Shown: in pieces, positions 8,893 through 63,477 of the stretch
Layout of the letters: each line of letters opens with the position of its first letter
Numbering within the stretch: the stretch's first letter is position 1
The notes under the pieces: generated by a model
Databases searched by the model: none
What the model was told of the DNA's origin: nothing
Seen by the model: only the letters and a program-made list of their open reading frames with translations
Translations under genes and position numbers: made by a program
DNA from: Bacillota bacterium
GTDB taxonomy: Bacteria > Bacillota > Clostridia > Christensenellales > DTU072
Assembly (NCBI GenBank): GCA_009781445.1
Contig: WQYD01000003.1
Span: 2,464-66,463, forward strand
DNA: 64,000 bases
Direction of reading: 5' to 3'

Positions 8893-9747
8893 ATGAAAAA
8901 ACAACGGTTTTTGCAAGCGTTTAGCGCGTATGATTTGATTTTAATCGCGATGCTTACCGCGCTTGCCGTTGCTTTTAAAGTTGTAGTAAAAATGCTTATA
9001 GGACTCATTGCCACACCCCTCGGAATACCGGGGGGTGCTTTGGCAGGCGGATTTTATATGCTTTGGATTCCGCTTACCGTGGCAATAGTGGGAAAGCGCG
9101 GTTCGGCTTTTTTAATGACATTTGTGCAATGCCTTGTGATAATAATCACCGCCATGCCGGGTAGCCACGGTATTTGGACATTTGCCACATACCTGCCACC
9201 TGCTATTTTGGCGGAAGTGGTTATGCTACGCAGAACGCAGGCAAAGCCTGCGAGAGACGAGAGACGAGAGACGAGAGACGAGATAAGGAATGATAACAAT
9301 ATAATTACGAATGACGACTTACGACTTACGAATGATAGAGGTATCAATGAAGATTTCGCAAATCAAAATTCACCACCTCTCGTCTCTCGTCTCTCGTCTC
9401 TCGTCTCTAATCCCTCACAATACACAGTTCTTCACTTCATATTCGCCTGCATTCTTGCAAACCTTGCGGGGACATTCGGAAGTAACCTGCTATTCTTCCG
9501 CCTAGGGTTTGTGCCGTTGTTTTTTGCAATGTCGGCGGGTGCGTTTTCGGGCGCAATGGGCGGTGTGCTTGGGTATTTGGTTTATAAACTTGTGGCAAAA
9601 TCAGGCATTTTTACTGCACACGCAACGCAGTATAAAAATTATAACGAAGAATCGCCAAGTGAATTCTGTGCGCCGAAAGGTGAAACGCCGTGGGAAGAAA
9701 TGAGTCAGCGCACAGCGCATGAAGATATGAAGACGCTACGCTTGTGA
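8893..9747 (+). CDS. Putative ECF-transporter substrate-capture (S) component, carrying an in-frame repeat insertion
   Basis: Polytopic membrane protein (DLILIAMLTALAVAFKVV...) next to ECF A/T genes. Residues encoded by 9253-9408 come from a palindromic element. The C-terminal tail runs into repeat 9705-9958. Confidence 0.45.
   Translation: MKKQRFLQAFSAYDLILIAMLTALAVAFKVVVKMLIGLIATPLGIPGGALAGGFYMLWIPLTVAIVGKRGSAFLMTFVQCLVIIITAMPGSHGIWTFATYLPPAILAEVVMLRRTQAKPARDERRETRDEIRNDNNIITNDDLRLTNDRGINEDFANQNSPPLVSRLSSLVSNPSQYTVLHFIFACILANLAGTFGSNLLFFRLGFVPLFFAMSAGAFSGAMGGVLGYLVYKLVAKSGIFTAHATQYKNYNEESPSEFCAPKGETPWEEMSQRTAHEDMKTLRL
9253..9408. repeat. Family-1 element inserted in frame in a CDS
   Basis: Perfect 30-bp inverted arms, (GAGACGA)x4 at 9253-9282 and (TCGTCTC)x4 at 9379-9408, flank a centre with an ACGACTT array. 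Near-identical copy at 12556-12708. Confidence 0.9.
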
Positions 9748-15381: not shown

Positions 15382-16278
15382 ATGAGTTCTTTTTGGGGTA
15401 AAACTTTAAAGCTAAGTATGTTCGGCGAAGTTCAGGGCGACATTGTGGGCGGGACGCTTCATGATTTTCCTATAGATGTTGCTGTTAATTTGGATAGGAT
15501 TAAGCTGGGATTAAAGCTAAGGCAAGGTTCTGTAAATTTTGCAAGCGCGAACAGAGCGGAAGATAGGCCAGAAATTATTTCGGGCATTACCGCAGGCGTA
15601 ACTAACGGCGCGCCGATTACCGTGCAGTTTCAAAATAAACAAAAAACGGATAGGGTTTTCAGCAGTTATTTTTCACCGCGGTTTACGCTTCCAATGGTGT
15701 TTTTCGGAATGCTTGCGTCCGATTATCTTTCCAAACGCGGAATTGAGATTTGTTCTCACATTAAATCCGTGGGTTCAACTGAGGACGATTCTTTACCGCT
15801 TGTGTGCGATCAAGTTTTGTTTGACAGGCTGAACGCAAGCCCCCTTGCCACAATAAATCCAGACGCAAGAAAGCAAATGGTTTCATTGCTTGAAAGCGTG
15901 AAAGCCACAGGGGATTCCGTGGGCGGTACGGTGGAAACGGTGGTTGTGGGCATGCCCGATAGCCTAAAAAGCCCTCTTTTTGACAGCTTGGATGCGCGCA
16001 TTGCAAGGACGGTTTTTCCCATTCCGGGGGTGAAAGCGGTTAGCTTTGATAAACTTATAACCAATTCGGTTGTTATGACAACCACATTCCGCCCCACACC
16101 CACAGTTAAGCAACAGCAAGCCTTTTTGCAACAGCAGGCAGATTCTTCCAAGCACATGGATTTAGATTTAAAGCGCGAACATGTGCCGTGTGCAGGAATA
16201 AGAGGTTCTATTGTGGTAACCTCTGCCGTGGCACTTGCGGTTCTTGACGCACTTCTTGAAAGGGATTTAAGAGTATGA
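15382..16278 (+). CDS. Chorismate-synthase-like protein, short and divergent (possibly non-catalytic)
   Basis: Colinear similarity to AroC (FGEVQG vs FGESHG; GDSVGG; C-terminal ...VPCAGIRGSIVVTSAVALAVLDALL). It is only 298 aa and core motifs are replaced or missing. Confidence 0.5.
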   Translation: MSSFWGKTLKLSMFGEVQGDIVGGTLHDFPIDVAVNLDRIKLGLKLRQGSVNFASANRAEDRPEIISGITAGVTNGAPITVQFQNKQKTDRVFSSYFSPRFTLPMVFFGMLASDYLSKRGIEICSHIKSVGSTEDDSLPLVCDQVLFDRLNASPLATINPDARKQMVSLLESVKATGDSVGGTVETVVVGMPDSLKSPLFDSLDARIARTVFPIPGVKAVSFDKLITNSVVMTTTFRPTPTVKQQQAFLQQQADSSKHMDLDLKREHVPCAGIRGSIVVTSAVALAVLDALLERDLRV

Positions 16279-17030
16279 CGGGTTTACCCTATCTTGCACC
16301 AAAAACCGTGCTTATCACAGGCGCGGGCGGTGGCATAGGTGGCGAGATTGCAAGAGGCTTTGCAAAACTTGGCTACACCTTGGTGCTTGCCTATAACAAT
16401 TCCGAAAAGGAATGCCTTTCACTTTGCGAGGAACTTAAAGGGCAATGCTTAACTTATGCTTTTAAGGCGGATTTAAGCAACGGCGAGGGGATTGATTCCC
16501 TTGTGGATTTTTGCAAAAAAAGCATTGGCTATCCCGAAATTTTAATTAACAACGCAGGGATTTCCTTAATTGCGCCCTTAAATGAAGTTAGCGGTGAAGA
16601 TATTGATTTGCTTTTAAAAACGAACCTTTACGCACCCATAAAGCTAACCAAAGCATTTTATGATAAACTTCTTTTAAACGAACGGGGCTTGGGGCGGATT
16701 ATAAATATTTCAAGCGTGTGGGGAATATCGGGCGGTTCGTGCGAAGCCGTGTATTCCGCGTCCAAAGCTGGGCTTATCGGGTTTACGAAAGCACTTTCTA
16801 AAGAAATAGGGCTTTACGGCACAACGGTAAACTGCATTGCCCCCGGGTACATTGAAACCGCCATGAACAACGCGCTTTCGGAAAGCGAAAAAGAAAATAT
16901 AATTAAAGATATCCCCATGCGCCGTGCAGGCACACCAAAAGACATTGCCGATTCCGTACTATTCCTTGCAAGCGAAAATGCAAAGTATATCACGGGTGAG
17001 GTTTTGAGTGTGAGTGGGGGGTGGAAGTAG
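16275..17030 (+). CDS. SDR-family oxidoreductase (3-oxoacyl-ACP reductase FabG-like)
   Basis: TGAGGGIG, NNAG and YSASK motifs, 251 aa. ATGA overlap with the upstream gene. Confidence 0.8.
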   Translation: MTGLPYLAPKTVLITGAGGGIGGEIARGFAKLGYTLVLAYNNSEKECLSLCEELKGQCLTYAFKADLSNGEGIDSLVDFCKKSIGYPEILINNAGISLIAPLNEVSGEDIDLLLKTNLYAPIKLTKAFYDKLLLNERGLGRIINISSVWGISGGSCEAVYSASKAGLIGFTKALSKEIGLYGTTVNCIAPGYIETAMNNALSESEKENIIKDIPMRRAGTPKDIADSVLFLASENAKYITGEVLSVSGGWK

Positions 17031-17205
17031 GTATGATGTGCGCCTTTGGCGCATGATGATATGATGACGCTACGCTAATGATGGGCGGGCAAGCCCGCAT
17101 GAACTGATTTAATTTAGCATTCCTTAATGTTGCGAAGCAACACATCATAAGGCGAAGCCGACATCATACCATCATAAGCGAAGCGACATCATAAGCGCAC
17201 GCGCC
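17031..17205. repeat. Family-2 element (ATGATG-word type)
   Basis: Left half has ATGATG words separated by GC-rich mini-palindromes. The conserved centre is gggcgggcaagcccgcatgaactgatttaatttagcattccttaatgttgcgaagcaaca. The right half has CATCAT words. Confidence 0.85.
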
Positions 17206-17209
17206 CAAC

Positions 17210-17626
17210 CTATTCCCCAATAACCTTTATCAGCACCCTCTTTGGCCGTTTGCCGTCATATTCGCCGTAAAAAATTTGTTCCCAAGTGCCGAAGTCAAGT
17301 GCGCCGTTTGTGATTGCGCAAACTACTTCGCGCCCCATAATTTGGCGTTTTAGGTGTGCGTCTGCGTTATCCTCATAGCCGTTGTGCTTATATTGGCTGT
17401 GGGGTTTTTCGGGCGCAAGGGTTTCAAGCCATTTTTCAAAATCACTGTGAAGCCCGCTTTCGTTATCGTTTATAAAAACGCTTGCGGTTATATTCATTGC
17501 GTTCACAAGCACAAGCCCCTCTTTAACCGTGCTGTCATTAATCGCTTTTTGAATATCGGGGGTTATGTTCACATAACCTCTGCGTGAGGGAACTATCAGC
17601 GTTAATTCCTTTCTAAAAGATTTCAT
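17210..17626 (-). CDS. YjbQ/UPF0047 family protein (secondary thiamine-phosphate synthase-like)
   Basis: 138 aa with YVNITP...[14 protein letters not shown]...WL..L.P....Y.HN...DNADAHLK, typical of UPF0047. Confidence 0.8.
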
Positions 17627-19295: not shown

Positions 19296-20534
19296 ATGAA
19301 AAAGCATATTATTGAAGACGCGCAAAGATGTTTGCAGTGCAAAAATCCGCTTTGTGAAAGCGGTTGCCCTATCGGCACGCCTATTAAAGAGGCAATTCAG
19401 CTACTAATCGGAAGCAATCTTAACGAAGCAGGCAAACTTCTTTTTGAAAACAATCCGCTTTCTATCGTTTGTAGCCACATTTGCCCCCAAGAAAACCAAT
19501 GCGAAGGGCATTGCGTTCTCGGCAAAAAGGGTTCACCTGTTTTTATAAGCGCGATAGAAGGTTATATTTCTGACTATTATTTAAATATCCACAAGCCTGC
19601 CACTATCGCGGATAAAAACGCGCCGAAAGTTGCCCTAATCGGTTCTGGCCCTGCTGGGCTTGCCATTGCTTTTATGCTTTGCACGAAGTACCGCGTAACC
19701 ATTTTTGAGGGAAATGATAGGCTTGGCGGTATCCTCAGATACGGAATTCCCGAATTTCGCTTACCAAAGGACATTGTGGACAGGCTTAGCGACATTTTGA
19801 TTAAAAGCGGTGTATCCGTCCGCCCCAATACCGCCATAGGTTCAAATTTAACAATAGACGATCTTTTTAGGGACGGCTTTAAGGCAATTTTCATGGGTAC
19901 GGGGGTTTGGCGTCCGCGAAAGCTAAATATAAAGGGCGAAAGCCTCGGGCATGTTCATTTTGCCATTGAATATTTAAGAAGCCCTGACGCCTATCGCCTT
20001 GGCAAGGAAGTAAGCGTGATAGGTGCGGGCAATGTGGCAATGGATGTGGCAAGAACTGCCCTAAGGCAAGGCGCAAGAGAAGTTACAATTTTTTGCAGGG
20101 GCGGTGAGGATGCTATTGCCGCAGGCAAATCCGAAGTGCAATATGCAAAAATTGAGGGCGCGAAGATAGAGGTTTTAAAATCCCCCGTGGAAATTACAGA
20201 CGAAGGCTTAATACTTGTGGATAACGAAGTGAAAATCAATGAGGACGGCACTAAATCAATAATTCCGATTGCAGGCAGTGAAAAACTTCACCCCTCAAGT
20301 TCCGTGATAATTGCCGTAAGCCAAGGCCCGCGTTCGGTGGTAATTTCTTCCACTAAGGGAATCAATATTAAAGATAGCGGGCTTGTTGCCGTGGACGAAT
20401 TCGGACACACTTCGCGCGCAGGGGTTTTTGCAGGCGGTGATGTGGTAACAGGCGCAAAAACCGTGGTTGAAGCCGTGGTTGCGGCGCGAAAAGTGGCGAA
20501 GGCGATTGAAGAATATCTTATGCATAATGCGTAA
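19296..20534 (+). CDS. GltD/NfnB/SudA-family NAD(P)H-dependent oxidoreductase (glutamate synthase small-subunit-like)
   Basis: N-terminal Cys clusters (CLQCKNPLCESGCP; CSHICPQENQCEGHC) and two dinucleotide-binding motifs (GSGPAGL, GAGNVAMD). Confidence 0.75.
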   Translation: MKKHIIEDAQRCLQCKNPLCESGCPIGTPIKEAIQLLIGSNLNEAGKLLFENNPLSIVCSHICPQENQCEGHCVLGKKGSPVFISAIEGYISDYYLNIHKPATIADKNAPKVALIGSGPAGLAIAFMLCTKYRVTIFEGNDRLGGILRYGIPEFRLPKDIVDRLSDILIKSGVSVRPNTAIGSNLTIDDLFRDGFKAIFMGTGVWRPRKLNIKGESLGHVHFAIEYLRSPDAYRLGKEVSVIGAGNVAMDVARTALRQGAREVTIFCRGGEDAIAAGKSEVQYAKIEGAKIEVLKSPVEITDEGLILVDNEVKINEDGTKSIIPIAGSEKLHPSSSVIIAVSQGPRSVVISSTKGINIKDSGLVAVDEFGHTSRAGVFAGGDVVTGAKTVVEAVVAARKVAKAIEEYLMHNA

Positions 20535-20546
20535 ACGCATTATGCA

Positions 20547-20683
20547 ATGCACAACGCACAACGCACAGCGCACAATGAAGGATTAATTCAGAATTAAGAA
20601 TTCAGAATGCAGAATTATGGATTAATTAACTAATAATGAGATTTAGAATCTATCATTGTGCGCTGTGCGCTGTGCGCTGTGCA
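20547..20683. repeat. Family-1 heptamer-array palindromic element
   Basis: (CA[A/G]CGCA)x4 - aatgaaggattaatt - (CAGAATT-type)x4 - atggattaattaactaataatgagatttagaatc - (TGTGCGC)x3.5. Confidence 0.9.
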
Positions 20684-20706
20684 TTTTTAACGCTTTGCGT
20701 TAAAAA
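20684..20706. terminator. Bidirectional terminator-like palindrome overlapping a stop codon
   Basis: tttttaacgc-ttt-gcgttaaaaa. The right arm contains the TAA (complement) of CDS 20700..21614. Confidence 0.5.
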
Positions 20707-21614
20707 TTCACCCTCACATTCCCCGTTGTGGCTTTGGCGGTGAGGCTTTTTTCGCCGTCTATCTTGATATAGGGTTTTCCTACGCTTTGGTGATTTAAGT
20801 AGCATTTTCCTGTGTTTGCGGAAAGGTGCAATCTGTAATCTGAAAGCGTGCCGTTAACTTTAATGTCAATATCCCCTGTGGTTACCTCTACGGAAATTTT
20901 TGGTGAGGTTACACCGCTTAAAGATACCGCGCCTGTGGTGGCTTTTGCGCTAAGTTCGCTACTCGCGGTAACATTTTCACACCTTATGTACCCTGTGGTT
21001 GAATTAAGCCTTACCGCGAGGGCTTGAGAATTTGCAAGCCTTATATAACCTGTGGTGCTTTTTACATTAATTTCGTTTGCGGTTATTCCGCCTAAGTTCA
21101 CATATCCTGTGGTTACCTCAGCTTGAAACTTTGAAAATGCGCCAAGGTTGCTTCCTCTTATATCTGCGGTTTTTGCGCTTACGCTTAATTCGCCGTTAAA
21201 TCCGCTTGGCAAAAGAATCTTAACCGCAAAAAAACTTGAAGGCAATCTTGCGAAACCTATGAACCCCCATGCTTGCCATTGCTTTTTGCTTTGGGCATCG
21301 TCATGATAGATTCTAAGGCTTTCCCCCTGCTGGTTTATCTTAATATCTAATAGCCTAATGTGCTTTTCACTTTTGGGGTAAGATATTGTGATAGCTTCCA
21401 CATTCGCCCTTTCAATTACCACAGGGCTTCGGCTACCGCCTTCCATGGATATTTTGCTAATATTGCCCTCTGCCGTATATTCTTCCCTTGTAAAATCTTC
21501 CGCCACGGCGAAATTGAGGTTTTCAATATCAAACCCTATAACCGAAAAGCCTGCAAGCGCAAGCACCAAACCAAGTGCTATGCACACAACTAAAACTCCT
21601 ACTAATGCTTTCAT
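20700..21614 (-). CDS. DUF4097-family beta-repeat protein (putative adhesin-like), membrane anchored
   Basis: N-terminal TM, then repeated ..TTG.I.L.. strands (TTGYVNL, TTGYIRL, TTGAVSL, TTGDIDI, TTGNVRV). Confidence 0.7.
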   Translation of the reverse strand: MKALVGVLVVCIALGLVLALAGFSVIGFDIENLNFAVAEDFTREEYTAEGNISKISMEGGSRSPVVIERANVEAITISYPKSEKHIRLLDIKINQQGESLRIYHDDAQSKKQWQAWGFIGFARLPSSFFAVKILLPSGFNGELSVSAKTADIRGSNLGAFSKFQAEVTTGYVNLGGITANEINVKSTTGYIRLANSQALAVRLNSTTGYIRCENVTASSELSAKATTGAVSLSGVTSPKISVEVTTGDIDIKVNGTLSDYRLHLSANTGKCYLNHQSVGKPYIKIDGEKSLTAKATTGNVRVNF

Positions 21615-32341: not shown

Positions 32342-32470
32342 TCAGCGCGAAGCGCACAATGGTGGTTTTTTTAATAATGATATTTAGAATCCTTCTCGTT
32401 TCATGTTTCTCGTTTCATGTTTCTCGTTTCATGTTTCTCGTTTCACACGCTACGCATACGCGTAGCGCGC
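32342..32470. repeat. Family-1 element with 14-nt tandem repeat, in the 5' leader of the giant gene
   Basis: cagcgcgaagcgcacaatggtgg - core taataatgatatttagaatcc - (TTCTCGTTTCATGT)x4 - hairpin cgctacg..cgtagcg. Confidence 0.85.
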
Positions 32471-32833: not shown

Positions 32834-32859
32834 ATTCCGTAGCCTCAGCTACCAAATTT

Positions 32860-37683: not shown

Positions 37684-37699
37684 TTGTTACACCTTCTTT

Positions 37700-37787
37700 A
37701 ATTAAGAATTCAGAATTCAGAATTCAGAATTGTGGATTAATTAATATTGAAATTAAAATTCCGCCATGTTTCTCGTTTCTCGTTTCA
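37700..37787. repeat. Family-1 element (short)
   Basis: (AAGAATT/CAGAATT)x4 - gtggattaattaat - degenerate core attccgccat - (GTTTCTC)x2.5. Confidence 0.8.
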
Positions 37788-37790
37788 CTT

Positions 37791-37823
37791 TATAAAAATA
37801 TGCAGGACTTTCGCCCTGCATAT
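37791..37823 (-). terminator. Rho-independent terminator downstream of lipoprotein gene 37849..39297
   Basis: atatgcagg / cctgcatat stem with an 8-nt loop and TTTTT on the minus strand. It directly abuts repeat 37700-37787. Confidence 0.6.
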
Positions 37824-37848: not shown

Positions 37849-39297
37849 TTAATCGGAAATTTCCGTGTAGGTGTTTAAATCAAGCGGAAGCCTTGGAACT
37901 AAGGACGAAATCGTTTCGCTATACTCTGTTTCGCCCACTGTAAGTTTACCGCTTTTGTACTCTGTGTTATCAAAGTTAAGTGTTATTATTTCGCTTGTTT
38001 CGGTATCTGTTTCAAGAGTTAGGGTAACCGTAACCGCCAAGTTATCAAACACTACTGCCACATTGCCTTCGCTGTTAAGTGCGGTGAAAATTATGGCTTT
38101 GGGGATAAACAACTCTATATCTTCTTTATACATTGGGTTAGAATAAAGTTCTTCACTCATAACTAAAAACTTCTCAAGCCCTGTGTTAACATAGCTTAAC
38201 CGCTTACCCAACTCATTATCAATATAGGAATAGAATAGCTTTTCGCCGTTCTTGTAATAATACTTTCCGCTATCCGAATACACCCCGAAAATGTTAGTTT
38301 CTTCACCGTTTGTAACGGTTGTTTCGTAAAATTCCATGCCCCAAATTTTGCCTTTTAAGAAATCAAAAATCACCCCGTCATTAACTTCGGGAATATAATC
38401 CGAACTTTCATAAGATTCTAAATCCTCAAAAGGGACTATCGTGCTTGCCTCTTTGCTGATATTAACTTCGGAATCAAGACGGCTGTTTATGGTTATTGTT
38501 TCGGTTTCGCTGTTTTCATTTTCTGTGGCGTACACAAGCCTTATATCAAGGTTTGTTTTAATGCCTCTTATAAATCCGTCCTGAATTGTAACGATAACTT
38601 CGCCCTTTGCATGAGAGTTGCTTTTGTGTTCTTCAGCCATGGTTACATTCTCGCCACCGCCAAACGAATTGTAAAGCCCTAAAATAGTTTCTTCCTCGTT
38701 AATCGTGCGTGTTACCGTGGTAATGCCTTCTTTCATTATTCCTGTGTGCTTAGAAAAGGAAATGCCGTCAAAATCAACCATGGATTTAACGAAAGGAATA
38801 GATTTTAAGCCAAATATCTCATTTTTTAAGCAAAAATCCACATATTTTTCGGGTATTGCGCGCTTAATTTTGTGGCTATTTTCTTCGCCTGTTTCTTCCT
38901 CACTCATATAAAGCACAAAATCAGCGAAATAGGTTTTTGAAGTCCGTTCCCTTTCGGTTTCTTCCTCATAAATATCCTTTTGGATTTCGGCGGTATAAAT
39001 AACGGGCTTTCCGCCTATTTCTGCCTTATCCGCCCTTGATATAACGCGCGTTTCCTGCTTATCTTTGGTTATTTCCTCGCCGTTATCGGACAAAAATTCC
39101 TGAATTTGATTGTACTGCGCGTGAACCCCATAATTATTAAGTGCCAAAGTTTTGTCCTTTGCAGATTCCAAAACGGTGTGTGCGTTTTCAATTTCTTTAC
39201 CGTGGTTGCCGTTTTTATCGTTGCAAGCAACGGCTATTGCCATCACAAACGCGATAGAAATCAGCAAACTTACAAATAATTGTAGTTTTTTCTTCAT
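37849..39297 (-). CDS. Lipoprotein (hypothetical), 482 aa
   Basis: Lipobox AIAVAC. Acidic, Thr/Glu-rich, with no recognisable catalytic motif. Confidence 0.5.
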   Translation of the reverse strand: MKKKLQLFVSLLISIAFVMAIAVACNDKNGNHGKEIENAHTVLESAKDKTLALNNYGVHAQYNQIQEFLSDNGEEITKDKQETRVISRADKAEIGGKPVIYTAEIQKDIYEEETERERTSKTYFADFVLYMSEEETGEENSHKIKRAIPEKYVDFCLKNEIFGLKSIPFVKSMVDFDGISFSKHTGIMKEGITTVTRTINEEETILGLYNSFGGGENVTMAEEHKSNSHAKGEVIVTIQDGFIRGIKTNLDIRLVYATENENSETETITINSRLDSEVNISKEASTIVPFEDLESYESSDYIPEVNDGVIFDFLKGKIWGMEFYETTVTNGEETNIFGVYSDSGKYYYKNGEKLFYSYIDNELGKRLSYVNTGLEKFLVMSEELYSNPMYKEDIELFIPKAIIFTALNSEGNVAVVFDNLAVTVTLTLETDTETSEIITLNFDNTEYKSGKLTVGETEYSETISSLVPRLPLDLNTYTEISD

Positions 39298-39385: not shown

Positions 39386-40525
39386 ATGAACAAAGTTTTT
39401 TTATGTAAAGAAATTGCCAAGGGTGAAACGCGCGTTGCTTTAAACCCTGCCGATGCCAAAAAGCTTATTGAACTCGGATATGAACTATCCGTGCAAAGCG
39501 GTGCGGGTGCTGTGGCAGGATATAAGGATTCGGAATACGAATCCGCAGGTGCAAGCCTTGTGAAAACGCTTAAAGACGGCTATGCTTTTGCAGATATTAT
39601 TATAAGGATTAACAAGCCCGACAGCGTGGCAGGAATTAAGGAAAACACATTGCATGTTAGTTCGCTTGATGTTTTTAACGAAACAGGGCTTGTGCAGGAT
39701 TTTGCAAAAGCAAATGTGAAAGCCGTTAGCCTTGAAATGATGCCCCGTTCCACAATAGCGCAAAAAATGGATATTCAAAGTTCGCAAGCCTCTCTTGCAG
39801 GCTATTATGCGGTGATTCTTGCTTCCTCACGGATTCCCAAAATCTTCCCCATGATGATGACGCCTTCGGGAACAATACCCCCCGTAAGCATTTTTATTAT
39901 CGGCGTGGGCGTGGCTGGGCTTCAAGCTATTGCCACAGCTAAGAGGCTGGGCGCAAGGGTTTCCGCATTTGACACCCGCCCCGTGGTGGAAGAAGAAGTG
40001 AAATCCCTCGGTGCAAAATTCGTTAAAATTGATTTGGGCGAAACAGGGCAAACAGAACAAGGCTACGCCAAAGAACTAACCCCCGAACAAATTGAAATTC
40101 AAAGAAAAGCGCAGGCAAAAGTTTGTGCCTCGTCTAATGTGGTTATTACCACAGCTAAGGTTTTCGGACGCAAAGCCCCCTTACTTTTAACCAAAGAAAT
40201 GATAAGCCAAATGAAAAGCGGTTCAATTATTATAGATATGGCGGTTAAGACGGGCGGAAATGTGGAAGGTTCAGATCCCGAAAGAGATGTGGTTCTTGAA
40301 AACGGCGTAACCATAATCGGCGGTGATTCTCTTGAACGCTTTGTGGCAAAGGACGCAACGGATATGTTTTCAGGAAATATCCTTGCTTTCCTCTCTCACT
40401 TTTGGAATAAAGAAGCTAAATCTTTCAACCTTGACACCGAGGACGAAATTATCAGCGGTTGCTTAATAACCGCAAACGGCGAAGTTGTGAACAGCAGGGT
40501 TAAGCAAGTGTTGGGCAACGCTTAA
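39386..40525 (+). CDS. pntAA: NAD(P) transhydrogenase subunit alpha, part 1
   Basis: 379 aa with an alanine-dehydrogenase/PNT fold and a GVGVAGLQAIATAKRLGA dinucleotide motif, followed by pntAB and pntB. Confidence 0.85.
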   Translation: MNKVFLCKEIAKGETRVALNPADAKKLIELGYELSVQSGAGAVAGYKDSEYESAGASLVKTLKDGYAFADIIIRINKPDSVAGIKENTLHVSSLDVFNETGLVQDFAKANVKAVSLEMMPRSTIAQKMDIQSSQASLAGYYAVILASSRIPKIFPMMMTPSGTIPPVSIFIIGVGVAGLQAIATAKRLGARVSAFDTRPVVEEEVKSLGAKFVKIDLGETGQTEQGYAKELTPEQIEIQRKAQAKVCASSNVVITTAKVFGRKAPLLLTKEMISQMKSGSIIIDMAVKTGGNVEGSDPERDVVLENGVTIIGGDSLERFVAKDATDMFSGNILAFLSHFWNKEAKSFNLDTEDEIISGCLITANGEVVNSRVKQVLGNA

Positions 40526-40531
40526 GCGTTG

Positions 40532-40655
40532 TAATTCAGAATTAAGAATTCAGAATGCAGAATTATGGATTCTAAATATCATTAATAATATAATCTGTCA
40601 TTCGTAAGTAATAATCAATCCGCAATTCTTAATTCTGAATTCTGAATTCTTAATT
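40532..40655. repeat. Family-1 element with CAGAATT arrays on both arms, inside the pnt operon
   Basis: aattcagaattaagaattcagaatgcagaatt ... aattcttaattctgaattctgaattcttaatt flank a reversed core (ggattctaaatatcatta) and cgtaagt. Confidence 0.9.
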
Positions 40656-40674
40656 AAAAAAATAAGAGGTAAAT

Positions 40675-40962
40675 ATGGATTTCATGTTGTTAATTTTCAT
40701 TTTTGTTATCGCCGCATTTTTGGGGGTGGAACTTATATCCAAAGTTCCCTCTCAATTGCACACACCGCTAATGTCTGGCACGAATGCGATTTCGGGCGTT
40801 ACTGTGGTGGGTGCGCTTGCAATGTGCGCCACGCAGTTCACAGGCTCGCTTGGCATGGTTCTTTCATTTATTGCGGTGGTTCTTGCCACAATCAATGTGG
40901 TTGCGGGATATATCGTTACAGATAGAATGCTCGGAATGTTTAAAAATAAGGGGGCGAAATAA
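40675..40962 (+). CDS. pntAB: NAD(P) transhydrogenase subunit alpha, part 2 (membrane)
   Basis: 95 aa with 3 TM helices and AAGAGG RBS. Confidence 0.8.
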   Translation: MDFMLLIFIFVIAAFLGVELISKVPSQLHTPLMSGTNAISGVTVVGALAMCATQFTGSLGMVLSFIAVVLATINVVAGYIVTDRMLGMFKNKGAK

Positions 40963-43448: not shown

Positions 43449-43568
43449 TGTGGGTTAGCTTGCTGTGCCGTTACTTTGCCACGGGTTTCACCCGTGGTTA
43501 TGCACATTGCGCCCCCTTGGGTTTCACCCAAGGTTATGCATATCCTGCCCACTACGGGGCAGTTGCGG
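43449..43568. repeat. Family-3 hairpin-cluster repeat
   Basis: gtgtgggttagcttgctgtgccgt...ccacgggtttcacccgtggttatgca...ccttgggtttcacccaaggttatgca...ctgccc..gggcag. Homologous block at 60112-60205. Confidence 0.8.
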
Positions 43569-43616
43569 AATTATTAATGAGATTTAGATTCCACAATTCG
43601 TACTTCGTACCTAAAT
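43569..43616. repeat. Family-1 fragment (core plus TTCGTAC array)
   Basis: attattaatgagatttagattccacaa-ttcgtacttcgtacc. Confidence 0.8.
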
Positions 43617-45813: not shown

Positions 45814-46025
45814 TGGTGATTGGTGATTTGTGGTTGGTGGTTGGTATTTCAGCGCACAGCGCACAACGCACAGCGCACAGTGAAGGAATTATTTATTTAG
45901 ATACGAAGTGCGAATTGTGAATTACCTAATTTTCAGTTACCGACTGAAAAATTGCTTGTGTTAATTTGTTAATAATGAGATTTAGAATCCGCCATTGCGC
46001 GCTGTGCGCTGTGCGCTGTGCGCTG
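45814..46025. repeat. Family-1 composite element
   Basis: GGTGATT-type array (45814-45846) - (CAGCGCA)x4 - agtgaaggaatt - degenerate GTACGAA array - small hairpin tttcagt/actgaaa - core - (GCGCTGT)x3. Confidence 0.9.
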
Positions 46026-46048
46026 ATTAGTGCGGAACGCGTTCCGCA

Positions 46049-47056
46049 CTAAATATCATCACTCCAATCCTCGTCTGCCTCAAAGTCTGCCTTTAAGAGT
46101 TCGCCTGCGTTTTTAACTATGCCGTTAGCGTCTATCTCGTGCATTGCCATTAAATCTTCGTGTAGCCCGATTGGGGAAAATTTATCTTGAAGCCCAAGCA
46201 TTCTGAACGCACAACCCTTTCCGCTACCTGCAATAACTTCAGCTACCGCACTTCCCAAACCGCCGATAACGGAATGATCTTCCACGGTTATAATTCGGCG
46301 CGTATCTTTAACTGCCGATAAAATAGCTTCTTTATCTATTGGCTTAATTGTGTGAATATTTAAAACGCGTGCTTTTATTCCGCTTGCGTTTAAAATTTTG
46401 GACGCCTCGCGTGCTTGGAAAACGCAAGAACCTGTGGCGATAATCGTGAGATCCGTTCCCTCGCACACCTTAACCGCCTTGCCGATTTCAAAGCCGTAAT
46501 CTTCCTTATCATAAAACACATTGTCAAATCCTCTGTTAATGCGGATATAAAAAGGGCCGGGGGTTTTGTGCGCCATTTTAACTGCGTTTGCGGTTTCAAT
46601 TCCGTCTGCTGGGATAATAACCGTCATGTTCACAAAGGAACGCATTACCGCAATATCCTCAATCGCATGGTGGGTTGAACCTGCCTGCCCGAAAGAAGTT
46701 CCGCCGTGCGTGGCGATAATTTTCACATTCAAATTTTGATAGCAAACATCCGAATGCACTTGATCCGCACACCTTAAAGAGGTGAAAACGGAAAATGACG
46801 AAACGAAAGGTATCAGCCCTGCTTTCGCCATGCCTGATGCCATGCCGATCATATTTTGTTCGGCAATCCCCACATTGAAAAATCTATCGGGGTATGCGTC
46901 CCCGAACATTCCTATTTTTGTGGACTGCGCAAGATCCGCCGTAAGCGCAACTACTTTTTTATCCTTCGCTCCCAATTCCACCAAGGTTTTTCCGTAAACC
47001 TCTGAGGTGGATAGCTTTGTGGTTTCCACTGCCGTGTAAGTTAAACTTCCTGCCAT
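46049..47056 (-). CDS. Transketolase, C-terminal (pyrimidine-binding) subunit
   Basis: 335 aa with ...FNVGIAEQNMIGMASGMA... and C-terminal domain motifs, immediately downstream of the N-terminal subunit gene. Confidence 0.85.
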   Translation of the reverse strand: MAGSLTYTAVETTKLSTSEVYGKTLVELGAKDKKVVALTADLAQSTKIGMFGDAYPDRFFNVGIAEQNMIGMASGMAKAGLIPFVSSFSVFTSLRCADQVHSDVCYQNLNVKIIATHGGTSFGQAGSTHHAIEDIAVMRSFVNMTVIIPADGIETANAVKMAHKTPGPFYIRINRGFDNVFYDKEDYGFEIGKAVKVCEGTDLTIIATGSCVFQAREASKILNASGIKARVLNIHTIKPIDKEAILSAVKDTRRIITVEDHSVIGGLGSAVAEVIAGSGKGCAFRMLGLQDKFSPIGLHEDLMAMHEIDANGIVKNAGELLKADFEADEDWSDDI

Positions 47057-54698: not shown

Positions 54699-54700
54699 TA

Positions 54701-54726
54701 AAAAACCGCCGAAAGGCGGTTTTTTC
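54701..54726 (+). terminator. Rho-independent terminator
   Basis: aaaaaccgcc-gaaa-ggcggttttt followed by T. Repeat 54727-54856 starts immediately after it. Confidence 0.75.
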
Positions 54727-54856
54727 AGCGCACAATGCACAGCGCACAATGATTGATTCTAAATATCATTATAGATTAATCCATAATTCTGCATTCTGAA
54801 TTCTTAATTCTGAATTAATCCTTCATTGTGCGCTGTGCATTGTGCGCTGTGCGCTG
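54727..54856. repeat. Family-1 heptamer-array palindromic element
   Basis: (CAGCGCA/CAATGCA)x3 - aatgattgattctaaatatcatta (core, reverse) - AATTCTG-type array - aatccttcat - (TGTGCGC/TGTGCAT)x4. Reverse orientation of 20547-20683. Confidence 0.9.
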
Positions 54857-59986: not shown

Positions 59987-60232
59987 TAACAGAACCCCGC
60001 AGGGGTGAAATGTGCATAACCCCATGCAAGCGGTAGCGAAGCTTGGGGTAAGGCAAAGGAATGTGGGTAGCAACACAAAACCCACCTTTCTGCCATTGGC
60101 AGAAAGGTGGGTTTTGTTTGTGTAGGTTAGCTTGCCGTACCGTCCTTAGCCACGGGTTTCACCCATGGTTATCCAAATTCTGCCCGCTTGGGGGCAGTTA
60201 CGGATTTTTCCATAATTTGTACTTCATAATTC
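59987..60232. repeat. Family-3 hairpin-cluster repeat (includes a bidirectional terminator)
   Basis: Shares ggtgggttttgtttgtgt[a/g]ggttagcttgc.gt.ccgt...ccacgggtttcaccc.tggttat...ctgccc..gggcag with 43434-43560. Extra left part has gcaggggtgaaatgtgcataacc. Confidence 0.8.
60081..60120. terminator. Bidirectional rho-independent terminator between convergent genes
   Basis: 14-bp stem cccacctttctgcc / ggcagaaaggtggg with a 3-nt loop, an A-run before it and TTTTGTTTG after it. Confidence 0.7.
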
Positions 60233-61670: not shown

Positions 61671-63299
61671 ATGAAATTAAATTATGTTAAAACTATTAAA
61701 GTGGGCATAGCATTTGCTATTTGCATGGCATTTTGGACGACTTATAACTTCGCAATGCCCCTGCTTCTTGAAAATGCTTACGGATTTTCAAATACCTTAA
61801 GGGGTTTGATTATGGGCGCGGGTAGCTTTATCGGGCTTATTCTTTTGCCTATATTCGGCAAACTTTCGGATAACACAAAAGGCAAGGTGGCAAGGTTCGG
61901 CAAAAGAACGCCTTACATATTTATAGGCACAATCGTAACGGTTTTGCTTATGGCGTTTGTTCCGCTTTCGGCAACTTCGCAACTAAATAAAGCGGTTGAT
62001 TTAAGAAAAGAGATTACAAATACGGCAGTTGAGGGATATTCGTATACGGACAGCAAAGGAAAAACTTATAACAACGCAAGCGAACTTTACACAATGATTT
62101 ACGAAAAAGGCGCGGAAAATTCAGACTATGCGGATTACGCATATTTAAAAAACAACGGCATTGATTCCTTAGCCAAGTACCTTGCTATTGCAGAAAACCC
62201 AAGTTCGGGGGATTACGATAAGTTCGTGAAAACAGGCATAAACACTTACGCAAGCGATGAAGTTTTTGAAAAGCTAACCAAAACCAACGGTGGCGGTGTG
62301 GCGGGGTTTATGGTGATTTTATTCTTCGCGCTTGTGGCGGTGGCAACCTTTAGAAGCCCTGCCGTTGCCCTCATGCCCGATGTTACCCCCAAACCTTTAA
62401 GAAGCCCCGCGAACGCAATAATCAACCTTGCAGGGGGGCTTGGCGGTGCGCTTGCTTTCATAATTTACACGGCGGTTTTCCTATTTAACCCCACGGGGTA
62501 CACCCTTGTTTTCGGGCTTACTGCGGGGGTTATGCTAATTTTGCTTGCGCTTTTTGTGAAATTCGTTAATGAACCGAAAATGGTTAAGGAATGTGAGGAT
62601 TTATGCCTTGAATATAACTTAACTGACGAAGAAGAACAAAAAGCAGAAAGTGAGAACAGCGAACTCATATCCGCAGACGCAGGGCAGGACACAAAGAAAC
62701 GCGCAAAACTTGTTTCGTTTTGCTTGATTCTTGCGTCCATTTTCATGTGGTTTTTGGGATACCAAGCGATAAACGCGAACCTATCCATATATTTAACCAA
62801 AACGCTGAACATTGAACCGGGGTTCGGCGGAATAATCACAGGGGTTTCTATGGGAATATCCGCAGTGGCGTTTATCCCAGTGGGAATGCTTGCAGGGAAA
62901 ATCGGCAGAAAGAAATCAATTATAATAGGATTCTTTTTGGCACTCGTTTCATTTATATTGATTTTCTTCTTTGCTTCCGCGCCTGTAACCGCGGTTGCCG
63001 TTCTGTTTACCGCGTTCTTCTTGATTTCGGGATTCGGCATGATAATTGCGAATGTGAACACTTTCCCTATGGTTGTGGAACTTTCAGATAAAAAAAGCAT
63101 AGGAAAATACACTGGGCTATATTACACCGCAACTATGAGTTCGCAAGCAATAACCCCCTTTATTGCAGGGCTTATTATGGATAGGTGGGGCAATAAATTT
63201 ATGTTTCTTTACGCAGTGTTCGCAATCGCGGTGGGAATTGTGCTAATGATGCTTGTGAAGCATGGGGATAGTAAGCCTGTACCAAAAAGCAACGCATAA
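61671..63299 (+). CDS. MFS transporter (GPH/SLC45-like) with a large hydrophilic insert
   Basis: ATG at 61671 preceded by GGAGG. GKLSDNTKGKVARFGKRTPYIFIG motif, and an insert of about 115 aa after the early TM helices. Confidence 0.7.
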   Translation: MKLNYVKTIKVGIAFAICMAFWTTYNFAMPLLLENAYGFSNTLRGLIMGAGSFIGLILLPIFGKLSDNTKGKVARFGKRTPYIFIGTIVTVLLMAFVPLSATSQLNKAVDLRKEITNTAVEGYSYTDSKGKTYNNASELYTMIYEKGAENSDYADYAYLKNNGIDSLAKYLAIAENPSSGDYDKFVKTGINTYASDEVFEKLTKTNGGGVAGFMVILFFALVAVATFRSPAVALMPDVTPKPLRSPANAIINLAGGLGGALAFIIYTAVFLFNPTGYTLVFGLTAGVMLILLALFVKFVNEPKMVKECEDLCLEYNLTDEEEQKAESENSELISADAGQDTKKRAKLVSFCLILASIFMWFLGYQAINANLSIYLTKTLNIEPGFGGIITGVSMGISAVAFIPVGMLAGKIGRKKSIIIGFFLALVSFILIFFFASAPVTAVAVLFTAFFLISGFGMIIANVNTFPMVVELSDKKSIGKYTGLYYTATMSSQAITPFIAGLIMDRWGNKFMFLYAVFAIAVGIVLMMLVKHGDSKPVPKSNA

Positions 63300-63317
63300 T
63301 GCGGGGCATTATGTGTT

Positions 63318-63476
63318 AGGCCATAGGCCATAGGGCATAGGCCATAGTAATTGAATTTTCTAATTCAGAATTGTGGATTAAATAATAAATTGAATTTTCT
63401 AATTCAGAATTGTGGATTAAATAATAATGAGATTTAGAATCCACCCCTATGCCCTATGCCCTATAACCTATGCCCT
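63318..63476. repeat. Family-1 element with GGCATAG/CTATGCC arms and a 39-bp internal tandem duplication
   Basis: aggccataggccatagggcataggccatag ... 2 x (aattgaattttctaattcagaattgtggattaaataata) ... tgagatttagaatccacc - cctatgccctatgccctataacctatgccct. Confidence 0.9.
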
Positions 63477-63477
63477 C

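Follow-up and report, generated by a model that had tools for sequence, protein, structure and literature searches.

What are the short, perfect palindromes that lie across stop codons at the edges of interspersed repeats, and are they chosen by the repeats or made by them? The question is raised by one locus in a 64,000-nucleotide (nt) stretch of a Bacillota genome (GCA_009781445.1; Christensenellales, DTU072), which we call the window (contig WQYD01000003.1, positions 2,464 to 66,463; C3:2464-66463 in our contig numbering). There, a GltD-like oxidoreductase gene and a convergent DUF4097 gene end 165 nt apart, on either side of a heptamer-array repeat element that has a hairpin at each of its ends (Table 1). 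A preliminary description of this DNA noted these palindromes and others like them in the window, and proposed that the elements had inserted beside pre-existing terminator or stop-codon hairpins. Here, we follow the arrangement through the whole genome (1.89 Mb, 98 contigs, 42% GC). Judged by their sequence and position, the palindromes appear to be stem-loops at the ends of genes, where they mark the seam with a heptamer-array repeat; tentatively, we favor the reading that the majority arose, or became perfect, in situ at the gene-element junction, after or during the arrival of the element.

At the GltD-like gene, the 3' end reads ATG CAT AAT GCG TAA, and these last four codons (M-H-N-A) and the stop lie inside the left palindrome, whose predicted RNA minimum free energy (MFE) is -15.7 kcal/mol (z -3.8). 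GltD-like homologues share no common tail: beyond the motif EYI/EYL, they differ in length and sequence. The element itself has inverted arms of 39 nt that are 90% complementary, and elsewhere in the genome it has near-full copies with 83-96% identity. On the DUF4097 side, the stem of the right hairpin (MFE -14.0 kcal/mol, z -5.1) can be extended to 15 nt with one mismatch (20679-20711, 14/15 bp), which takes it 5 nt into the end of the element. The palindromes that had been listed at 20521, 20684, 40516, and 63295 are all present in the sequence, and all are at stop codons. In the typical layout, the 5' arm consists of the gene's last codons plus the stop, and no non-repeat DNA other than the 3' arm separates the stop from the element.

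The elements are non-coding palindromes of 90-200 nt with no open reading frame (ORF). Their CAGCGCA-type arrays have 265 distal ends in the genome, 215 of which lack another repeat module in the outer 50 nt. When we searched the outer 50 nt for perfect hairpins (stem ≥7 bp, loop 3-9 nt), 49 array ends had one, and 40 of these 49 hairpins ended no more than 3 nt from the array (binomial p = 1.6e-27 against a uniform null). The frequency of abutting hairpins depends on what the array end faces: 35/88 at ends facing a stop codon, 4/58 at ends facing a start codon, and 6/65 at intragenic ends (stop-facing versus start-facing, odds ratio [OR] 8.9; versus intragenic, OR 6.5; p about 1e-5). The same trend appears when no stem threshold is applied, as the 34-nt flank has a mean MFE of -7.0 kcal/mol at stop-facing, -2.9 at start-facing, and -3.9 at intragenic ends. 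At 32 of the 35 stop-facing ends with a hairpin, the hairpin starts no later than 5 nt past the end of the stop codon; at 40 of the 53 stop-facing ends without one, the array begins 0-12 nt past the stop. These spacings suggest a working rule: stop codon, optional hairpin, and element, with almost no free spacer (0-3 nt) between them; a repeat family that is poorly understood thereby acquires a concrete boundary rule. The abutted arrays span all types (CAGCGCA, GGGCATA, and AGAATTC) plus an unrelated family-2 repeat (GTGAAGACGC...). Within the window, there are six perfect stems of ≥10 bp, compared to 0.35 in shuffled sequence, and four of the six abut CAGCGCA arrays.

The association also holds when it is approached from the hairpins. 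We masked repeats by self-BLAST (549 islands, 4% of the genome); this mask and the explicit CAGCGCA-array ends used above replaced k-mer masks (K = 11, 12, 13) that were too permissive and a strict period-7 array finder that broke elements into fragments. The census comprises 418 perfect hairpins (stem ≥8 bp, ≥3 GC pairs), which were scored as touching a repeat when they lay ≤6 nt from an island. Counting unmasked hairpins only, 37/49 (76%) of those straddling a stop codon touch a repeat, as do 8/15 that start 1-3 nt after the stop, 10/56 (18%) located 4-60 nt downstream, 15/79 other intergenic hairpins, and 7/117 within coding sequence (straddling and touching hairpins pooled versus downstream: OR 10.9, p = 6.6e-9). 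At least 6 of the 19 stop hairpins scored as "free" turned out on inspection to abut arrays missed by the mask, and with these the share is about 80%. A stop-straddling hairpin is more frequent at gene ends that have an element than at element-free ones (40/279 versus 30/797; OR 4.3, p = 1e-8), an enrichment that the insertion proposal predicted. Among the 254 gaps of tandem gene pairs, the hairpin lies on the element's stop side in 44 and on its start side in 8. Convergent pairs can have two hairpins, one per gene on either side of the element (5/84), while the element-free convergent pairs that we inspected have a single hairpin common to both genes.

A weak YGC core without a U-tract is found in most of the hairpins that abut elements. 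The element-free gene ends of this genome have textbook terminators (A-tract, GC stem, T-tract), mostly several to about 35 nt past the stop. The A-5'/T-3' polarity of a terminator is found in 13/45 (29%) of the abutting stop hairpins versus 32/46 free downstream hairpins (p = 1.4e-4), and the reverse T-5'/A-3' polarity, which is that of the elements, in 9/45 (20%) versus 1/46. In the window, a GC-rich stem-loop leading directly into a T tract is found at 54700-54725 and 37798-37823. It is not found at 20521, where the array follows the stem and T5 comes only beyond the element, nor at 63295, nor at 40516, where there is no T-tract. The 40516 palindrome and the adjoining element sit between pntAA and pntAB, within the pntAA-pntAB-pntB operon, and since these genes encode subunits of one enzyme, efficient termination there is unlikely.

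To whom, then, does the hairpin sequence belong? It differs with the locus, the 1575 hairpins having 1498 distinct cores, and in seven genes the 5' arm lies over what is genuine coding sequence: GpmI, Lon, CysS, ornithine carbamoyltransferase, NrdD, NAD kinase, and cysteine desulfurase all reach the last positions of full-length NCBIfam profiles, with a tail of 0-3 residues. The end of Dxr is also normal, and PPi-phosphofructokinase falls about 7 profile positions short. These full-length matches indicate that the stops are at their natural places and that the genes were not truncated by the element. Because the palindromes differ by locus and their 5' arms overlap the ends of full-length proteins, they are not a fixed, constant module of the element; that part of the preliminary description stands. 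A constant terminal module is likewise unsupported, as only a short core, AAYGC...GCRTT, is common to 46% of the abutting straddlers, with outer stems that follow each gene's codons. Nor did we find a target-site duplication: the two junctions of 48/55 solo elements share 0-1 nt.

The common core does connect the hairpins to the repeats. AAYGC occurs in the 5' arm of 17/37 abutting straddlers versus 9/220 free hairpins away from stops, and the array-unit variants CAACGCA and CAATGCA have AACGC and AATGC as their inner part. The longer word ATAATGC, which had been noted as common to the 20521 and 63295 palindromes despite their unrelated genes, turns up in the arms of 6 of the 65 stop hairpins and of none of the 353 others; in three of these hairpins, the TAA within it doubles as the stop codon. 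At the protein level, a C-terminal Asn-Ala (AAY GCN-stop) ends 13/386 genes near repeats versus 9/1124 without (OR 4.3, p = 8e-4), making it the commonest C-terminal dipeptide beside repeats and the fourth commonest genome-wide (22/1510). About 10 of these 22 genes read AAYGCN-stop-GCRTT, that is, a hairpin; in the window, -NA ends lie at 20523-20534, 40514-40525, and 63288-63299.

Formation in situ would account for perfect stems that extend over codons, as well as for the class-specific enrichment, the common core, and the -NA excess. A T-rich, unit-like element end (...GCRTT-TTT, followed by CAGCGCA) would meet an A-rich gene end (...AAY GCN TAA) and so create an imperfect palindrome. Intrastrand template switching, i.e., the correction and extension of this quasipalindrome, could then turn it into a perfect hairpin of 8-13 bp; such correction is an established mutational mechanism (PMC7202029). 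The switch may at times also change the final two or three free codons, and the -NA excess would then be explained. On the stop side, the hairpin would be retained because it is compact and harmless there, and it might cap an mRNA 3' end that would otherwise run into a double-stranded hairpin of roughly 130 nt. A stronger version is possible, though we consider it rather doubtful: that the repeats remodel the 3' ends of their neighbors at large, with the element end seeding a template switch that writes a perfect hairpin across the stop, alters the last 2-3 codons of dozens of proteins (e.g., to -Asn-Ala-stop), and so gives the RNA a new 3' cap or terminator. What we infer from the junctions as they stand today is the order of events, the template switch, and any role at the RNA level.

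Several points weigh against formation in situ. A mechanical by-product would be expected at start-facing and intragenic array ends too, and it occurs at only 7-9% of them, so selection must be invoked. The AAYGC/TAATGC likeness is due in part to the stop codon and the A-rich C-terminal codons that lie in the arm. Some abutting hairpins are plainly canonical terminators (54700 and others on contigs C34, C48, C75, and C90), and these probably preceded the element. Sense RNA folds better than antisense in 36 versus 18 cases (p = 0.04), a weak bias that is compatible with a role at the RNA level without demonstrating one; the counts of G.U and A.C pairs next to the stems do not differ significantly. 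Profile alignments are blind to the last 2-3 residues, and rewriting of the last 2-3 codons is compatible with the full-length matches above.

The hairpin counts in relatives speak for formation in situ. In 671 kb from four genomes of the same family (453 ORFs), there are 9 stop-straddling or stop-touching hairpins versus 49 downstream ones, compared to 65 versus 63 here (p = 4e-6), with the limit, again to the detriment of formation in situ, that the sampled relatives belong to other genera and have higher GC (44-53%). These 671 kb contain no exact three-copy heptamer arrays. An exact-protein look-up with the GltD-like and DUF4097 proteins led to contigs from three other samples that are 100% identical to the window and that either hold the element or break inside its array. 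Among the proteins searched, the nearest non-self GltD-like homologue is 75% identical; the contigs that carry it are non-syntenic and have ordinary terminators 25-40 nt past the stop. DNA and protein searches of the family relatives yielded only GltD-like homologues of 37-44% identity. Two scans of genome contigs recovered no other genome with both core and array, and the 17-mer core gave chance matches only. One of these chance matches is in Nostoc calcicola FACHB-3891 (JACJRQ010000001.1:4112-4382), where inverted arrays (TCAGAAT)5 and (CTGAATT)3 lie about 215 nt apart; their unit is the same as that of the AGAATTC arrays of this genome. Altogether, no empty site, polymorphism, or close relative was found in which the order of events could be observed, which also counts against our reading; the direction of causality is something we infer.

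The alternative to formation in situ that survives best is the one first proposed, a target preference in which an insertion machinery recognizes small hairpins or T-runs, so that elements land just 3' of pre-existing gene-end stem-loops. We regard this as possible without finding it probable. Abutment is exact (0-3 nt) even at canonical terminators (54700; C34:16391; C48:3398), whose T-tract is shared with the T-rich element end and not added to it, and among canonical-looking terminators the abutting ones are nearer the stop than the free ones (at the stop in 9/16 versus 6/38, p = 0.006). The base before the array is T at 162/215 ends, mostly within a short T-run, and excising 20547-20683 would place TTTTT straight after the GltD hairpin. 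By our estimate, abutting hairpins would be far rarer at random coding positions than the 9% seen at intragenic ends. Single-strand transposition that recognizes hairpins is in keeping with the absence of a target-site duplication, and there is precedent in group IIC introns, which are found after terminator stem-loops (PMC1702495); Firmicute terminators may also sit a few nt past stops (PMC7858274).

The proposal of targeting is partly supported. It holds as far as geometry goes: the hairpins flank or abut the elements and straddle stops. It fares less well with respect to pre-existing terminators. Canonical downstream hairpins are not enriched, as their 18% contact with repeats is about the base rate of element-bearing gene ends (19% within 60 nt; 26% with any island within 45 nt), while the stop-straddlers are about 80% occupied. 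Few abutting hairpins have terminator polarity, and one lies inside the pnt operon. The hairpins form a sequence family with a common core and an accompanying -NA excess, and convergent pairs with an element can carry two hairpins where inspected element-free pairs share one. The relatives are poor in stop hairpins, and the ancestor would have required about twice their stop-hairpin density. Finally, we found no transposase linked to the heptamer elements; the one RAYT-like gene is beside a different repeat family.

A third explanation, which we consider unlikely, needs neither targeting nor formation in situ: elements would insert anywhere, and selection would leave only those that spare the gene, the hairpin, and the next ribosome-binding site within tiny spacers. 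The spacing is indeed what such packing would produce. Hairpin-less elements also begin close to the stop, start-facing array ends retain a median of 50 nt, and the residual spacer is 24-37 nt in element-bearing tandem and convergent gaps versus 42-73 nt in element-free gaps. Family-2 repeats, in which words alternate with small GC hairpins, behave in the same way: one occupies 17033-17207 between the convergent genes 16275..17030(+) and 17210..17626(-), leaving 2-3 nt at either stop, and stop-to-stop filling with a stop-in-loop hairpin recurs at C4:2458, C41:12985, and C54:1185, a seam like that of the heptamer elements, which we also count in favor of formation in situ. What packing leaves unexplained is the 4-10 times higher frequency of stop-straddlers beside elements, together with the common core and the -NA excess.

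We find it equally hard to credit that the hairpins belong to the repeat system itself, either as one-unit mini-elements or collapsed remnants (T-tail, a single CAACGCA/CAATGCA-like unit, loop, complement, A-tail) or as a terminal cap module that arrives with the element. The right hairpin of our locus does match the polarity and unit of a minimal family-1 element, and the T-5'/A-3' polarity of a fifth of the abutting stop hairpins is in line with this. Some cores recur, namely ACGCGGAACGCGT (four times) and GAGGCGAAAGCCTC (three times), always abutting, and ACGCATAATGCGT (three times, two of them abutting), and the elements of family 2 include small variable hairpins as an integral part. Against this, most hairpin sequences are unique, and the outer stems pair with each gene's own last codons, e.g., TTACTC/GAGTAA over Leu-Leu of Lon; with proteins of full length, an inserted module of fixed sequence does not suffice. 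An element or hairpin module that supplied the stop and truncated the gene is rejected in the cases tested, as eight enzymes reach their profile ends.

The other sites in the window are variations on the same layout (Table 1). In the pnt operon, the element ends at what is likely, by our reading of the sequence, the ribosome-binding site of pntAB (AGAGG, 6 nt before the ATG at 40675); given its position, it must be on the operon mRNA unless it carries a promoter. The hairpin at the stop of the major facilitator superfamily (MFS) gene has an MFE of -13.9 kcal/mol (z -5.9), and its stem reaches 12 bp in sense RNA with G.U pairs. Two terminators that had been described as abutting elements are both there, with corrected coordinates. 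The first, given as 54701-54726, occupies 54700-54725; it begins 1 nt past the stop of an AMP-binding-enzyme gene, and its T6 abuts CAGCGCA. The second, given as 37791-37823, occupies 37798-37823 and is near rather than against its element, 7 nt from the one at 37697-37790. The palindrome at 46027-46052, absent from the earlier list, lies 1 nt from a CAGCGCA-array end at 46025. Small hairpins adjoin other kinds of array as well: CGCAGGC-AAA-GCCTGCG (9241-9257) leads into an AGAGACG array, and CGCTACGC-ATAC-GCGTAGCG (about 32448-32467) lies 1-2 nt past a TTTCTCG-type array. Two long perfect palindromes are away from CAGCGCA-array ends, at 60075-60117 (20-bp stem) and 267-302 (15-bp stem).

Table 1. 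Genes, hairpins, terminators, and repeat elements at the junctions discussed, in window coordinates.
Feature	Position	Strand	Description
GltD-like NAD(P)-dependent oxidoreductase gene	19296..20534	+	ORF list; Pfam Fer4_20 and Pyr_redox_2
Left hairpin	20521..20546	+	TGCATAATGCG-TAAA-CGCATTATGCA; perfect 11-bp arms; stop TAA (20532-20534) in loop
Family-1 heptamer-array element, 137 nt	20547..20683	none	Inverted CAGCGCA-type arms around AGAATTC units and a conserved core
Right hairpin	20684..20706	-	TTTTTAACGC-TTT-GCGTTAAAAA (T5-AACGC-loop-GCGTT-A5); holds DUF4097 stop 20700-20702
DUF4097 (toastrack) gene	20700..21614	-	ORF list and Pfam; convergent with GltD-like gene
Canonical terminator	37798..37823	-	9-bp stem, then TTTTTAT; 25 nt past stop of 37849..39297(-)
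Palindrome	40516..40531	+	CAACGCTTAAGCGTTG; centered on pntAA stop (40523-40525); MFE -9.5 kcal/mol
AGAATTC-type element, 133 nt	40532..40664	none	Fills the pntAA-pntAB spacer
11-bp palindrome	46027..46052	-	TTAGTGCGGAA-CGCG-TTCCGCACTAA; straddles TAG stop of minus-strand gene
Canonical bidirectional terminator	54700..54725	+	AAAAAACCGCC-GAAA-GGCGGTTTTTT; MFE -15.8 kcal/mol
Family-1 element	54726..54856	none	92% identical to the copy at 20547
Hairpin	63295..63313	+	CATAATGC-GGG-GCATTATG; MFS stop (63297-63299) in 5' arm
GGCATAG-type heptamer element	63314..63477	none	Directly after the MFS hairpin

The genome has two matches to PF01797 (Y1 transposase). One 152-aa Y1-transposase gene (IS200/RAYT-like; C20:1866-2321) adjoins a 1.2-kb island of a third repeat family, made of GGGTTTCACCC..GGTTATGCACATT..CCCCTTTGGGG hairpins, which is found in the region C20:662-2321 and, in the window, at 43474-43572 and 60145-60207. 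This third family and the Y1 gene look like a REPIN/RAYT-type pairing that is separate from the heptamer elements, and RAYT-driven mobility of the heptamer elements was therefore rejected. There is also a REP-like hairpin family, TGTAGC-N4-GCTACA (e.g., C36:7695-7718, C18:26192-26215, and about 32841-32854 in the window), with the loops CCAAGG/CCTTGG, TATA, CACG/CGTG, and TGAG; it has 6 + 6 + 3 exact-core copies, plus the TGAG form at three further places, and its copies are mostly away from heptamer elements. An Rfam search of the window at gathering thresholds revealed no group II intron, the only match being a Moco riboswitch.

That mobile DNA adjoins terminator hairpins is a known phenomenon. 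Group IIC introns and terminator-seeking insertion sequences (ISSen1-type IS3; IS1397/ISKpn1 in REP loops) place mobile DNA just 3' of a gene-end stem-loop, as seen here; the heptamer elements differ in that they have no ribozyme, reverse transcriptase, or transposase, and that the favored hairpins straddle the stop. IS200/IS605 elements, PATEs, and REP/BIME-RAYT systems are similar in being hairpin-centered, in lacking a target-site duplication, in their location at gene 3' ends, and in the presence of a Y1 gene in the genome. However, their hairpins are conserved parts of the element, while those described here are locus specific and include coding sequence. We found no conserved subterminal hairpins of the IS200/IS605/PATE kind, as the flanking palindromes differ by locus, and no fixed insertion word, the nearest likeness being the T before the array in 75% of ends; beside the heptamer elements there is no cognate Y1 transposase, as the gene at C20:1866-2321 accompanies another family. 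REP/BIME (REPIN) sequences are near-identical, imperfect palindromes of 20-40 nt with a GTAG head, which the mostly unique stop hairpins do not resemble; the GTAGC-N4-GCTAC family fits REP better than the stop hairpins do, and it rarely abuts heptamer elements. In comparison with a DDE-type MITE, the inverted arms are present and a flanking direct duplication was not seen.

Two further comparisons concern the hairpins and not the repeats. In Firmicutes, intrinsic terminators lie at or near stops in connection with "runaway transcription," according to the summary of Johnson et al. 2020 in PMC7858274. The terminators at 54700 and 37798 are alike, but most hairpins here are without a U-tract, 20% have reverse polarity, and one is inside the pnt operon. 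Quasipalindrome template-switch mutation, known from E. coli thyA and lacZ reporters (PMC7202029), turns an imperfect into a perfect inverted repeat in one step; it is known as a point-mutation hotspot and not as the genome-wide maker of about 50 stop-codon hairpins beside repeats that it would be here.

For the elements themselves, comparable systems are the heptamer arrays of cyanobacteria (STRR) with small dispersed repeats, Rickettsia palindromic elements, and MIRUs that overlap stop and start codons (in part PMC10969869), all of which are short, non-autonomous, gap-packing repeats that can be read in frame and touch stop codons. Our literature search found no description of a genome where about 80% of stop-straddling hairpins touch a repeat. 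We know of no STRR, Rickettsia palindromic element, or MIRU described with locus-specific perfect hairpins on a neighbor's stop codon. Hairpins built on a gene's last codons, a core that they have in common with repeat units, and the -NA excess are apparently new as well, at least to us. What is unusual is that the hairpins look bound up with the repeats and not just present beforehand. If they are mere targets, the heptamer elements are one more case of a known insertion habit. If the repeats make them, the co-evolution of small palindromic repeats with gene 3' ends, and the origin of perfect inverted repeats in bacterial genomes, could be followed here; and if remodeling of neighboring genes is true, selfish repeats would be building an insulating structure that makes them tolerable.

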